Of a stretch of 64,000 nt of DNA, positions 13,801 through 16,800 are shown in pieces. Source of the DNA: Lentisphaeria bacterium. GTDB taxonomy: Bacteria; Verrucomicrobiota; Lentisphaeria; JABSQK01; JAWLHB01. Each line of letters starts with the position of its first letter. Within the stretch, counting starts at the first letter, position 1. The stretch covers positions 1-64,000 of the forward strand of contig JAWLHB010000017.1 of NCBI GenBank assembly GCA_041690595.1, given 5' to 3'. Position numbers: made by a program.

Positions 13801-16800
13801 ACCGGGGCTCTTTTCAGTTGGCGCCGCCAAGCGATCCATGGGCATGATCGGTGGCAGACTCCGGTCTTCAGCCGTCAGCTCTTGCGATTCGCTTCCAAGT
13901 ACTCACCCAGGACCTGCCGCCCTTCATTGGTGTCCGTCCAGTACTCAAAGCCCTGCTGCCGCAGCTGCGCAAGCAAGGCCATCCATTCCTCGTGATTCCA
14001 GCTCTCCCGGCTCTTTAGCCAGGCGAGCATCTCTTTCTTCGGTAGACGGGGTGCTTTCTGTGCGGTCATCGTCGAATTCCTCATGATGTTCACGCTCGTA
14101 AAATGATTATGGGTCTGATGTACTATGAACAATCTCGGCCCGCATACGTTAAAGATAATTCATTTTGCCGCTGAAGCAACCGAAACTCAACTTCCGGCAG
14201 CACATTGACCGCTCGTCTGCAGTGGATGCGTAAGACCAACAGTCAACTCTCCCTTCCAGCTTCGCGAACCATGCGCCGCCAGCAGCTCCGCCGCACTCCC
14301 CCTCAAGACCTCTTCATGCAGCTTCGTCGCCTCACGTACGATGGCCACCATGGTCTCCCCCCCCAATTCCTCCACGATCTCCGTCAGCAGCTTGCTCATC
14401 CGATGTGGCGATTCGAACAGAAAGACCGTCCGGCTCGATGCAAAAAGCTGCCGAAGCATTGATCGGCGTTTGCCCGACTTCATCGGCAGAAAGCCGCCAA
14501 AAATGAAGTCCGAGATCGGAAATCCGCAGGCCACCACCGCGAAGGTGAGTGCCGATGCTCCCGGAATGATGATGGGCTCGATTCCCGCCTCCACGGCATC
14601 GCGCATCAGCAGGTAGCCAGGATCCGAAACAGCCGGTGTACCCGCATCCGTAAGTACCGCGATCCGCCGCCCCTGTTGCACCTGCTCCAGCAACTGATGC
14701 GTCTTGCCGTGCTCGTTATGGGAGTGGTAGCTCGTCGTGGCGCACGATATCTCAAAGTGAGTCAACAGCTTGCGCGCCCGCCGGGTATCCTCAGCCGCCA
14801 CCAGGTCCGCCTCCCGAAGCATGCGCAGCGCCCGCAGCGTTATATCTTCCAGATTCCCGATCGGACTGGCAATCAGCGCCAGCCATCCACCTGATCCATC
14901 ACACATTGCCTTTCTCCCATCGATTGTAATATTTACCCCATGTAGAGTCCGCCATCGACGGAGATCTCCTGCCCTGTCAGGTAGGAGGCGCCTGGAGAAA
15001 CCAGGAATGCCACCACATCCGCCACTTCATCAGGTCGTCCGAAGCGACGCACTGGGATCTCCCGCATCAGATCCCGCTTGCGCTTCTCATTGATCACGGA
15101 AGTCATCCGCGACTCGATGAAGCCGGGGCTCACGGCGTTAACCAGAACGCCGGACCCGGCCAGCTCTCGTGCGATCGCACGCGTAAAGCCGCCAATCCCT
15201 GCCTTCGCCGCGCTGTAATTGGCTCGACCAGCCCCGCCAAGCCTTCCGGCATCCGACGTAATATTCACAATCCGCCCGGCCCGCTGCCGTGCCATCAGCA
15301 GCCCCGCCGCACGCGTGACGTAGAATATCGACGATAAGTTCGTGTCGATGACGCTCCGCCACTGTTCGTCACTCATGTAGGAAAGCAGCGCGTCCTGAAG
15401 AATTCCCGCATTGTTCACCAGGACATCCAGCCGCCCGAAGCGTTCGTGAACCGCCTGCACCAGCCCCTTCGCCGCCGCCGAATCCGTCAGATCCGCGCTG
15501 AAGCTGCCAGCTTTAGCGCCCTGATCTTCCAGTTCACGGCAAAGTGTCTGTGCTGCCGTGTCCTGTCGGAAGTAATGCAGGGCGACGCTGAAACCATCAG
15601 CCGCCAGCCGTCGCGCAATGGCTTGACCGATATCACCAGTCGCACCCGTTACCAATGCCACCCGTCCAGTCGACTCACGTGGCGGTTCGGCCCAGACCGA
15701 GGCCGCTGGCTCCTCGGCAAGCGTCTCGGTCTCCTGGCGCGTCGCCAGGTAAGCCTCGACATCCTTTCTGTGGATGACTCCGCCACCGACAGCCTTCGCC
15801 ACTGCCTCCAGATCCACCTCGTGTTTCTTGGCAAAAGCCCGCGCCGCGGGGGCAACCCGCAGTCGTTCCGGCGGCGTCGTAGCCGGCGCTGACGCATCTG
15901 GCATCACCGCGCCCGGGTCGCCTCCGCCAGCCAGAAGAGCTGCGTTTTCCGATTCCACATTCGGCACTTTAGTGCCCTCGGCGCCCAATGCCGCCAGAAT
16001 GTAACCAACCGGAATGGTGCTTTTCTCCTCCGCATAAACAGCCAGCAGCGTACCGCTGAAGGGTGACTCATACTCCACCACGGTCTTGTCTGTGATTAGC
16101 TCCACCAGCGGCTGCCCCTTTTCCACCTTGGCCCCTACCCGCAACAACCAGCTGCCGATGGTTGCTTCATCCATATTCTCATAAAGCTTTGGCAGTCGAA
16201 AAAGCTCCGTTCGTTCCTCTGGCATCACAACATGCTCCTCGTGTTTGATCTCTCCAGCGCAGCCATGCCTAATCCCGAGGCGCTGCTCGCAGATTCGGCG
16301 CGAACCCCAGCAGCACCGCTCCATTGCCACTTTCGCCGCGCAGATCCAGCAGAATCACGAACTCCTCCGGCAACAGGTGCGGAAAGCTCAAGATGGGAAA
16401 GCGGCTCACCAGTCGCTTGTCTGTGAAAATAAAATTCACCTGCTTGATCTGACAATATGCGATCAAGTGGCCGGAATTGAAAGGGAAGCCGCGCGGGATG
16501 AAATAGTCGCCTCCCGCATAGTAAGCCACGGCAGGATTCTCACACATGATGACTGGCGTCCGACCGCTGTGATAGTTGATCAACGTGGAATGCAGCGGTT
16601 CCTGCTCCGCCGGCACCAGAGCCTCTCCCTCTTCCGAGATCCAATCTGCCGCGACATGCACCGCCTGCCATTCGTCACGTTGTTTCTCCGACTTATACTG
16701 CCACAGCCGATCTGTACCATTGTAGAGACACACCAGCACAACGATCACCGTCGCCCCCTGCACCCCCTGCCAAACCCGACTACTGAAGCGCGTCCGAATC

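Follow-up and report, generated by a model that had tools for sequence, protein, structure and literature searches.

An E2-like lipoyl and subunit-binding head joined to a FabG-clade ketoreductase, as a fusion and as neighbouring genes of a nine-gene operon

The window, a 64,000-nucleotide stretch of Lentisphaeria bacterium DNA (contig JAWLHB010000017.1, positions 1 to 64,000), contains a gene for a 430-amino acid protein that, judged by sequence comparison, corresponds to a fusion of two neighbouring genes, one for a free-standing head made of a lipoyl domain and a peripheral subunit-binding domain (PSBD), the other for a FabG paralogue (Table 1). Elsewhere in the phylum, in other classes and in several families, these two genes stand in an operon with the order c3-head-FabG-KS-CLF-E1α-E1β-GT2-ACP. 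The nine-gene set is conserved and undescribed; no paper on the lipoyl-PSBD-FabG architecture or on the module was found in the literature, and the genes are currently named just 'FabG', 'beta-ketoacyl synthase', 'PDH E1' or 'hypothetical'. The reading that best accounts for the whole, to which a probability of roughly 55% can be given, is that the E1 of the module would load Lys47 of the lipoyl domain, the lipoyl arm would prime KS/CLF or ACP without CoA, and the FabG domain would reduce the product.

Table 1. Features of the fused gene, its downstream neighbour and the genes of the operon
Feature	Position	Strand	Basis or remark
Fused gene 'LPF' (lipoyl domain + PSBD + FabG-clade ketoreductase)	14933..16225	-	430 codons plus stop
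Lipoyl domain, residues 7-81	15983..16207	-	PF00364 3.4e-12, residues 9-80 (Pfam Biotin_lipoyl); pLDDT at least 94
Lipoyl-lysine codon K47, motif ITDKTV	16085-16087	-	within lipoyl domain
PSBD, residues 121-167	15725..15865	-	family profile, AF2 helices, predicted E1β interface
FabG-clade short-chain dehydrogenase (ketoreductase), residues 188-430	14936..15664	-	adh_short_C2 196-427, 2.8e-63; S324, Y337, K341 catalytic
RsmI (16S rRNA C1402 2'-O-methyltransferase), downstream neighbour, outside module	14187..14906	-	TIGR00096 218 bits, above cut-off
Operon gene 1: c3			~2000-aa secreted protein
Operon gene 2: head			lipoyl+PSBD
Operon gene 3: FabG paralogue			
Operon gene 4: ketosynthase (KS)			Cys-His-His triad
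Operon gene 5: CLF-like partner			without the two His
Operon gene 6: E1α			PDH-type
Operon gene 7: E1β			PDH-type
Operon gene 8: GT2 glycosyltransferase			
Operon gene 9: ACP			

The minus strand gives a stop-free translation of the gene (product P0001), and the reading frame stays open further upstream, as far as a GTG at 16330. The ATG at 16225 was preferred as the start, in agreement both with the N-termini of the family (a methionine, three to eight residues and then a conserved stretch of 11 residues in an alignment of 30 sequences) and with an upstream gene that ends at 16269. The AF2 model (mean pLDDT 85.2) has the 'beads on a string' appearance of an E2: lipoyl domain, linker, PSBD helices, linker and short-chain dehydrogenase (SDR), the linkers 102-119 and 167-182 being disordered with pLDDT below 50. 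Residues D46, K47, P126, A127, A128, H152, D155, E157, T193, G194, G200, S324, Y337 and K341 are invariant across the 30 aligned sequences, D46 and K47 also in a set of 10 fused plus split heads; from the invariant positions named in the preliminary description only T45 has to be withdrawn, being conserved in at least 90% of the sequences. PF00364 together with SDR families occurs, as had been stated, in all of the 120 best database matches (410-542 amino acids, 49-64% identity), and PF02817 (E3_binding) is listed for 22 of them (about 18% by hand count) and not for a quarter. Pfam, NCBIfam, profile and AF2 results agree with the central claim of that description, namely that an E2-like lipoyl and PSBD head is placed on a FabG-type SDR instead of an acyltransferase core.

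When the 430-amino acid protein is scored singly, PF02817 reaches 19.2 bits over residues 125-157, under the Pfam cut-off of 23.7. At the level of the family, however, the identity of the PSBD is secured. A profile built from 10 heads and searched against PDB chains matches over its positions 115-176 the isolated PSBD chains 1w4i_A (1.4e-8), 8oqj_A (2e-6) and 9h1n_A (2.2e-6), and with PDH E2 chains (9y7v_D, 1e-41), which are the best PDB relatives of the head, its alignment runs through lipoyl domain and PSBD alike; AF2 builds three helices at 126-167 with pLDDT of about 90. As in the E2 of PDH and other 2-oxoacid dehydrogenases, an N-terminal lipoyl domain with a DK motif is followed by a linker, the PSBD and a second linker. 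Unlike an E2, the protein has no PF00198 acyltransferase/core domain at E<=1, the place of the 2-oxoacid_dh catalytic domain being taken by the SDR, and the operon of the unfused forms has KS, CLF, ACP and GT2 instead of E3. The E3-binding protein of eukaryotic PDH (protein X), whose chain 1zy8_K matches the head at 3.6e-18, also carries a lipoyl domain and PSBD on a protein that does not transfer acyl groups; however, it retains a core domain of E2 type, by which it is inserted into the E2 core, whereas the fused protein has an SDR and no E2 association. A biotinyl instead of a lipoyl domain was considered and rejected, given that the best alignments of the head are to lipoyl domains of E2 and that it bears the motif TDK, which is of the lipoyl type, biotinyl domains carrying MKM.

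The free-standing heads end after the PSBD, at about 165 amino acids. They seem to be common, as a rough sign from a representative-library search with the head profile, in which 54 of the best 150 rows are 150-200 amino acids long, some perhaps gene fragments, and multi-lipoyl E2s are mixed with true heads. Among 6646 candidates no longer protein (754-2150 amino acids) with the head was found at E<=1e-15, which is weak evidence, and a profile search of the genome contigs with the full-length alignment returned plain FabGs only (80 loci, all matching from residue 107 onward).

The reductase domain shows all the features of a classical SDR (TGxxxGxG, NNAG and Ser-Tyr-Lys), is 43-46% identical to bacterial FabGs and has FabGs as its best PDB relatives (2ph3_A, 2.2e-69). 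It scores above the NCBIfam cut-off for the FabG subfamily NF009466 (257.9 bits, cut-off 222) and stays under that of the FabG equivalog TIGR01830 (284.7 bits, cut-off 297.75), as under those of the remaining equivalogs. In a tree of 51 SDRs from fused, split-module and housekeeping proteins, the fused proteins make up a clade (100/99) whose sister group is that of the split-module FabGs (97/89); together they form one group of their own (94/73), apart from the housekeeping FabGs. The latter include the ordinary FabG correctly reported from elsewhere in the genome, which adjoins a FabF-like gene on contig C9 and groups with a plain Lentisphaeria FabG (99/97). In this tree the reductase belongs to a separate FabG paralogue clade and is not a tagged housekeeping FabG. 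From FabG, NodG-type paralogues included, the protein differs by this clade, by its sub-equivalog score, by its 187-residue E2-like head and by several substitutions read from the alignment. Near the active site S-D-A-G and R-x-N-Y replace S-V-V-G and Q-A-N-Y. The Arg that five housekeeping FabGs have in the '...SRG/N-I...' stretch, presumably one of the two ACP-docking arginines of E. coli FabG, is missing in all module ketoreductases (KRs; 5 fused, 8 split), and the Arg of the 'SRGIG' loop, present in PDB FabGs and the split forms, is missing in the fused clade.

In nine genomes the head and the FabG are encoded side by side in two genes; the nine-gene operon is complete in two of these and near-complete in four others. 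When 12 operon loci were searched by tblastn with E2 and E3 queries from the window's genome, neither an E2 acyltransferase core nor an E3 was found. Around the fused gene, the gene directly downstream encodes, in 12 of the 30 loci with readable neighbours, a fusion of KS and truncated CLF half (640-667 amino acids), and in L105 this KS gene (10690-12693) begins before the lipoyl-PSBD-FabG gene (9338-10693) has ended. In a sample of 401 genomes of the phylum the head was found at 140 bits or more in 23, spanning 11 families, the next best match (113 bits) being an ordinary E2. The c3 protein likewise occurs in 23 genomes, and 22 of these have the head as well (in the remaining head-positive genome no c3 was found with the c3 query used), and the KS-CLF (E<=1e-100) in 18, of which 17 are shared and the other has its fused gene cut by the contig end. 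Within one family, f7, all three occur in the same six of 14 genomes. Some E2-like head match exists in 193 of the 401 genomes; the distribution of the head follows c3 and KS-CLF and not the E2 complexes.

The genome of the window has its module homologues dispersed over six contigs, that of the fused gene included (E1αβ on C29, GT2 on C10, ACP on C12, c3 on C40 and KS-CLF on C15), and the parts are also unlinked in six other genomes with the fused gene. Three E1αβ pairs of this genome, on C29, C26 and C9, are E2-less; the assignment of the C29 pair to the module rests on 53% and 45% identity and on one moderately supported branch, in which its E1β groups with the operon E1βs (SH-aLRT 85). The module E1 scores as PDH-type (TIGR03182 309-370 bits, NF006667 315-386 bits), and no E2 or E3 was found within about 1.5 kb of E1 in five other genomes with the fused gene.

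Complex prediction for the E1β dimer with residues 108-172 gave scores of 0.71, 0.70 and 0.71, compared with 0.02 for the best of three controls, the runs having at least 90% contact agreement and a partner pLDDT of at least 76. The predicted interface (residues 121, 123-130, 150 and 152-153) lies across the E1β dimer and includes the family-invariant P126, A127, A128 and H152. The PSBD binds in this manner in the Geobacillus E1-PSBD structures; PDB entries 3duf, 3dv0 and 3dva each contain an E2 chain matching the head, and the complex score may reflect memory of such solved structures. The predicted contact of the PSBD with the E1β dimer, together with the PDH-type E1α and E1β genes of the unfused operons, makes an E1 a plausible docking partner of the head. 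Docking onto the E1 or E3 of a 2-oxoacid dehydrogenase complex had been proposed before; its E1 part is upheld as plausible, but the likely partner is the dedicated E2-less, PDH-like E1αβ of the module and not a standard complex.

The preferred reading can be set out as a sequence of steps. The PSBD would dock the module's own E1αβ and, in turn, the cell's E3; relatives that carry two or three PSBDs could hold both together. E1 would decarboxylate a small 2-oxo acid, pyruvate or one like it, and would reductively acylate lipoyl-Lys47, after which the arm would pass the acyl starter to KS/CLF or to the module ACP without CoA and without an E2 core. The KS would condense the starter with malonyl-ACP, the 3-oxoacyl product would be reduced by the FabG domain, and the arm would be re-oxidised by E3. 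LipA and LplA/LipB-type enzymes are encoded in the window's genome, which bears indirectly on the inferred lipoylation of Lys47. What the protein reduces, formerly left open, can be narrowed down: because the gene is operonic and co-occurs with the KS/CLF pair and ACP, the likely substrate is a 3-oxoacyl thioester made by the module KS. The GT2 and the giant secreted c3 hint that the product may be a lipid or glycolipid of the envelope or surface. Several points speak against this reading. We know of no precedent for a ketosynthase primed from a lipoyl arm, a housekeeping E2 could offer another route by passing the acyl group to CoA, and with an ACP of its own the module could do without the arm as a carrier. 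On the same side stand the sub-threshold Pfam score of the PSBD, the unlinked parts in the window's genome and six others, the three E2-less E1αβ pairs and the one head-positive genome in which the c3 query found no match.

A more far-reaching version of this reading, tentative and with the odds somewhat against it, would see in the module a hybrid of a 2-oxoacid dehydrogenase complex and a type II fatty-acid/polyketide synthase, in which an E1-loaded arm, and not acetyl-CoA, FabH or an E2 core, primes KS/CLF, the KR is tethered to the arm, the same PSBD recruits E3, and the resulting lipid or glycolipid acts on or with c3. With E3 brought in by that PSBD and the KR held on the arm, reducing equivalents would balance over the first round, in which pyruvate is turned into 3-hydroxyacyl-ACP. 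The tie of the module to c3 is very tight. By eye, N-termini resembling signal peptides are present in four of the five c3 proteins examined, the start of the fifth having apparently been placed too far upstream, and apart from these a hydrophobic 19-mer was found just once, at residue 537 of one copy; a role of c3 as a cytoplasmic scaffold was rejected on this ground. In the atlas cluster of c3, 37% of the members have PF06439.

Against the preferred reading, the head might do no more than hold the KR on E1, on E3 or on both, so as to assemble a complex or to draw NAD(P)H locally from E3, with an arm that never donates acyl groups and a starter that is acyl-CoA or acyl-ACP. PSBDs are docking modules, they are multiplied beside one lipoyl domain in the relatives P0004, P0009 and P0011, the head is fused to the KR and not to the KS, and the module has an ACP of its own. 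Such an arrangement is nevertheless unlikely, for the lipoyl lysine is invariant in fused and split heads alike, and the operon loci have a dedicated E1αβ yet no E2 core to accept the acyl group; an E1 of 2-oxoacid dehydrogenase complexes has, to our knowledge, no use without a lipoyl acceptor. It is less probable still that an ordinary FabG is docked on a standard complex and uses its E1 or E3. The genome does contain three complete E2-bearing sets (PDH, OGDH and an E1αβ/E2/E3 set on C42), and the E2 of the C42 set is the closest in-genome relative of the head (29% identity over 177 amino acids). But the SDR belongs to its own paralogue clade, the unfused operons place the head with their own E1α/E1β and with KS/CLF/ACP, and the E2 complexes are far more widespread than the head, which tracks c3 and KS-CLF.

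The fusion itself and the loss of the presumed ACP-docking Arg from all module KRs would also suit a lipoyl domain that replaces ACP, the KS product staying on dihydrolipoyl-K47 to be reduced in cis by the fused KR. This proposal is improbable: a dedicated ACP exists in the module, also in the window's genome, the KS bears the triad of malonyl-ACP-decarboxylating enzymes, and head and KR are encoded as separate proteins in most genomes. Acetoin or 2,3-butanediol catabolism, with E1αβ as AcoA/AcoB, the head as the N-terminus of AcoC and the SDR as butanediol or acetoin dehydrogenase, is very improbable, because the best NCBIfam match of a split head, the acetoin dehydrogenase E2 NF011457 (74.8 bits, cut-off 307), and the BudC scores on the SDR (194-211 bits, under cut-off) are set against much higher FabG scores (285-289 bits), a PDH-type E1, and KS, CLF and ACP genes, in the operon and co-occurring with the head, that would be left unexplained.

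The closest known system to an arm-primed KS is QncN/QncL/QncM with the homologous SclQ1-4, in which a ThDP enzyme and a lipoyl/acyltransferase protein load a C2 unit onto an ACP for an assembly line (PMC6335953). There an E1- or transketolase-like ThDP enzyme and a lipoyl arm feed carrier-protein biosynthesis and not CoA, as they would in the module; QncL and SclQ4 keep an acyltransferase domain of E2 type beside the lipoyl domain whereas the fused protein has none, an NRPS follows there and KS/CLF and KR here, and the module E1 is of PDH type. A second parallel is the KS-CLF/CYF pair AmcF-AmcG of cispentacin, which uses a 2-oxo-acid-derived starter on an ACP (PMC10698177). Like that pair, the module partner combines a FabF-like KS with a shortened, catalytically inactive KS-like half; unlike it, the module has E1αβ and the lipoyl head in place of an AmcH-type adenylating loader, and its KS-CLF falls under both NCBIfam equivalog cut-offs (AmcF 186-196 bits, cut-off 325; AmcG 36.5 bits, cut-off 80), the FabF models outscoring AmcF.

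If the preferred reading is true, handing acyl groups to CoA by way of an E2 core would not be the only task of lipoyl arms: here the arm would prime a ketosynthase directly and without CoA, a new join of central metabolism to lipid or polyketide assembly. An odd fusion also becomes a defined and testable nine-gene module that exists in split and fused forms, with a candidate partner for each component.

The genome of the window also encodes an E1αβ-lipoyl-FabH fusion (C42:8992-12312, 1106 amino acids), which like the module joins E1, a lipoyl domain and a condensing enzyme without an E2 core, there in one chain; its condensing enzyme, however, is a KAS III and it has neither PSBD nor KR. This fusion was found in none of the five other genomes with the fused gene, and a partnership between the two was rejected on that ground, the preliminary description having already seen no support for it in the distribution. 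A replacement of FabH by the module was rejected too: three of these five genomes have a stand-alone, normal FabH-like gene. That fatty-acid synthesis can thus be initiated without the module also counts against the preferred reading. Nor was a function read from the neighbours in the window (RsmI, a PMT_2-like gene, Bac_transf and a GT2), which are not conserved; RsmI adjoins the fused gene in three of the 30 readable loci, that of the window and two others (L109 and L117), and the neighbouring GT2 shares only 26-28% identity with that of the module, a better match to which sits on C10.

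The preliminary description of an E2-like head, made of a lipoyl domain and a peripheral-subunit-binding domain (PSBD), fused to a FabG-type short-chain reductase (SDR) is borne out by the open frame, the domain matches, a profile of ten heads, the predicted fold, the homologues and the invariant residues. In Pfam, the protein matches Biotin_lipoyl at residues 9-80 (3.4e-12) and adh_short_C2 at 196-427 (2.8e-63), with E3_binding at 125-157 below its cut-off (19.2 against 23.7 bits). In NCBIfam it scores above the cut-off of the FabG subfamily NF009466 (257.9 against 222) and slightly below that of the FabG equivalog TIGR01830 (284.7 against 297.75). 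The head profile matches PDH E2 chains across both lipoyl domain and PSBD (9y7v_D, 1e-41), and isolated PSBD chains as well (1w4i_A, 1.4e-8). The AF2 model (mean pLDDT 85.2) places the lipoyl domain at 7-81 and a small helical domain at 126-167, with disordered linkers at 102-119 and 167-182, the latter followed by the SDR. The lipoyl and SDR make-up recurs in all of the best 120 database matches (49-64% identity), PF02817 being annotated in 22 of these by our count; the sources name the homologues only 'FabG'. Across 30 aligned members there is no variation at D46, K47, P126, A127, A128, H152, D155 and E157, in the cofactor loop or at Ser324/Tyr337/Lys341. Because of the domain scores, the AF2 layout, the 120 like-built homologues and the invariant residues, the fused architecture is real and not an assembly artefact. 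Three homologues (P0004, P0009 and P0011) have two or three PSBDs in tandem behind one lipoyl domain (alignment A1, columns 170-340), the reverse of ordinary E2s, in which the lipoyl domain is the repeated unit; this would suit a protein that has to bind E1 and E3 at the same time. A PSBD also accompanies a catalytic domain other than the E2 core in the solved 'alpha/beta-hydrolase (202)' 7qjm_A (388 aa), which matches positions 111-165 of the head profile, the PSBD part (E 2.9e-5).

We read the fused protein as an E2-like arm and dock joined to the ketoreductase (KR) of a module devoid of an E2 core, in which a PDH-type E1 would be coupled to a ketosynthase (KS) and its CLF-like partner, the KR and an acyl carrier protein (ACP). 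In other classes of the phylum, head and reductase are separate adjacent genes of a larger operon, c3 – head (about 165 aa: lipoyl and PSBD) – FabG (about 245 aa) – KS – CLF-like – E1α – E1β – GT2 – ACP, where c3 is a protein of about 2000 aa and GT2 a glycosyltransferase. The full order is present in genomes G158 and G254, is intact up to where the contig or locus stops in G269, G122 and G301 and is broken by a few genes in G262; c3–head–FabG is seen in G083 and G251. The E1 subunits score as PDH-type (TIGR03182 309-370 bits, cut-off 394; NF006667 315, 357 and 386 bits, cut-off 321), and tblastn with an E2 and an E3 of the window's genome as queries found neither in 12 operon loci. Among the 51 SDRs of a tree, those of the fused proteins group as a single clade (100/99), which is sister to the FabGs of the split modules (97/89) and separate from the housekeeping FabGs; the FabG on contig C9 of the window's genome belongs with the latter. 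The lipoyl-PSBD-FabG fusion may have had a single origin. By our reading of the alignments, module reductases have S-D-A-G and R-x-N-Y where housekeeping FabGs have S-V-V-G and Q-A-N-Y, and lack the conserved Arg of the 'SRG/N-I' stretch that the latter retain, an ACP-docking residue in E. coli FabG. In the fused clade, the 'SRGIG' cofactor loop has lost its Arg too.

Nine genome loci came from searching 401 genomes of the phylum and 35 metagenome loci from a head-only alignment; by our tally, the gene downstream of the fused gene was readable in 30. In 12 of these it encodes a 640-667-aa protein, a FabF-like KS with its Cys-His-His triad to which some 250 aa of a KS-like half without catalytic function are joined; the 12 include two loci with separate genes (L128 and L136) and two that are identical (L105 and L132). 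Five loci have c3 downstream and ten another gene. Neither catalytic His is present in the CLF-like gene, and its fused form is shortened to the N-terminal half. The closest NCBIfam family to the KS fusion is FabF; AmcF/AmcG, a KS-'cyclization factor' pair described in PMC10698177 as extending a 2-oxoglutaryl starter, matched below cut-offs.

Among the 401 genomes, the head profile reached at least 140 bits in 23, the next match (113 bits) coming from a frame as long as an ordinary E2; c3 is present in 23 and KS–CLF (E<=1e-100) in 18. Head and c3 occur together in 22 genomes. The c3 genome without a counted head, G223, has a fused gene cut by the contig end and is also the only one of the 18 KS–CLF genomes outside the 17 with a head, and the c3 query used found none in head-positive G197. 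Head-positive genomes are spread over 11 families, and in family f7 head, c3 and KS–CLF fall in the same 6 of 14 genomes; these genomes are related, and therefore the counts are not independent events. By coordinates, 15 of the 23 head-positive genomes have c3 directly adjoining the head or fused gene. Full-length KS–CLF (E<=5e-156) is present in 8/8 genomes with an intact fused gene, five of which (G307, G154, G400, G352 and the window's own, G000) carry the two on different contigs.

Homologues of every module part lie dispersed in the window's genome (E1α/E1β on C29, GT2 on C10, ACP on C12, c3 on C40, KS–CLF on C15), each surrounded by unrelated genes. This genome also encodes three complete E2-bearing sets, GcvH, a free lipoyl domain, LipA and LplA/LipB-type genes. 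Of its three E1α-E1β pairs lacking an adjacent lipoyl-bearing E2, only that on C29, with 53% and 45% identity to the G254 operon genes, is assigned to the module, with moderate support: its E1β groups with the operon E1βs in a quick tree (SH-aLRT 85) that leaves the f7 copies unresolved. Each of five further fused-gene genomes has an E1α–E1β pair that lacks any E2 or E3 gene within roughly 1.5 kb. The E1–lipoyl–FabH fusion on C42 is built on the logic of the module, from E1 via a lipoyl arm to a condensing enzyme; the earlier statement that distribution does not support tying it functionally to the lipoyl-PSBD-FabG protein agrees with its not being found as a fusion in these five genomes, three of which have a normal FabH.

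Coordinates of the fused gene, its neighbours in the window and related features elsewhere
Feature	Location	Strand	Remark
RsmI (16S rRNA C1402 2'-O-methyltransferase)	window 14187-14906	-	directly downstream of fused gene
Fused gene, lipoyl+PSBD+SDR	window 14933-16225	-	stop-free translation, 430 residues
Subtilase with P-domain, 1064 aa	window 20576-23770	-	directly downstream of 13,399-aa ORF, one-base overlap
13,399-aa ORF	window 23770-63969	-	BACON_2 and ASH/MSP-like Ig-type repeats
RsmI, other loci	L109:10518-11243; L117:9938-10675		directly downstream of fused gene
c3 (among other loci)	G000 C40:14072-20269	-	
c3	L144:3119-9181; L156:861-7202		
E1α-E1β pairs, no adjacent lipoyl-bearing E2	G000 C29:16707-18622; C26:70782-72686; C9:193879-195969		
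Free-standing lipoyl domain, 101 aa	G000 C46:1025-1330		
E1α+E1β+lipoyl+FabH-type KAS III fusion, 1106 aa	G000 C42:8992-12312 (L150:4993-8313)	+ (L150)	no PSBD, no E2 core

Docking of the PSBD was modelled by pairing residues 108-172 of the fused protein (alignment of 30) with a C29-type E1β present in two copies (alignment of 8). Scores were 0.71, 0.70 and 0.71, against 0.02 for the best of three controls; in the calibration of the tool, 116 out of 157 solved complexes but only 2 out of 215 mismatched pairs attained its mark, counts only roughly valid here. At least 90% of contacts agree between runs, and partner pLDDT is at least 76. The predicted interface sets residues 121, 123-130, 150 and 152-153, among them the invariant P126, A127, A128 and H152, against 251/254, 281-286 and 325 of both β chains. 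Because a like complex has already been solved, the prediction demonstrates a resemblance to E1–PSBD docking but not binding itself.

We infer the loading of Lys47, the hand-off, the substrate and the product of the module. In the most economical mechanism, the PDH-type E1 would load Lys47, the lipoyl arm would prime the KS or ACP without CoA, the KR would reduce the product and E3 would reset the arm. E2 components and E3BP share the head of the fused protein but keep their core domain. In the QncN/L/M and SclQ loaders, as portrayed in PMC6335953, a ThDP enzyme and a lipoyl arm feed an ACP, with an acyltransferase domain; KS–CLF/CYF pairs (PMC10698177) are also among the nearest described systems. 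A full-text literature search on the architecture found nothing relevant, and there is a sizeable chance that the mechanism is new. Protein c3 has no Pfam match at the thresholds used and none in NCBIfam; its signal-peptide-like N-termini and the occurrence of PF06439 in 37% of its atlas cluster members are evidence that it would be secreted. Together with GT2, a secreted c3 hints at a surface lipid or glycolipid as product. Its distribution would tie a secreted giant tightly to a cytoplasmic lipoyl protein.

The neighbours of the fused gene within the window tell little about its function. No neighbour of the fused gene there is conserved except RsmI, which lies directly downstream in 3 of the 30 readable loci, probably as inherited gene order without functional meaning. 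Upstream, on the same strand, are a GT2, a Bac_transf sugar transferase and a PMT_2-like protein, followed by the subtilase and the 13,399-aa ORF. This ORF is unrelated to c3, c3 tblastn in this genome having matched C40 and C20 only; in each third of the ORF, the summed score for BACON_2 by itself is 340-521 bits.
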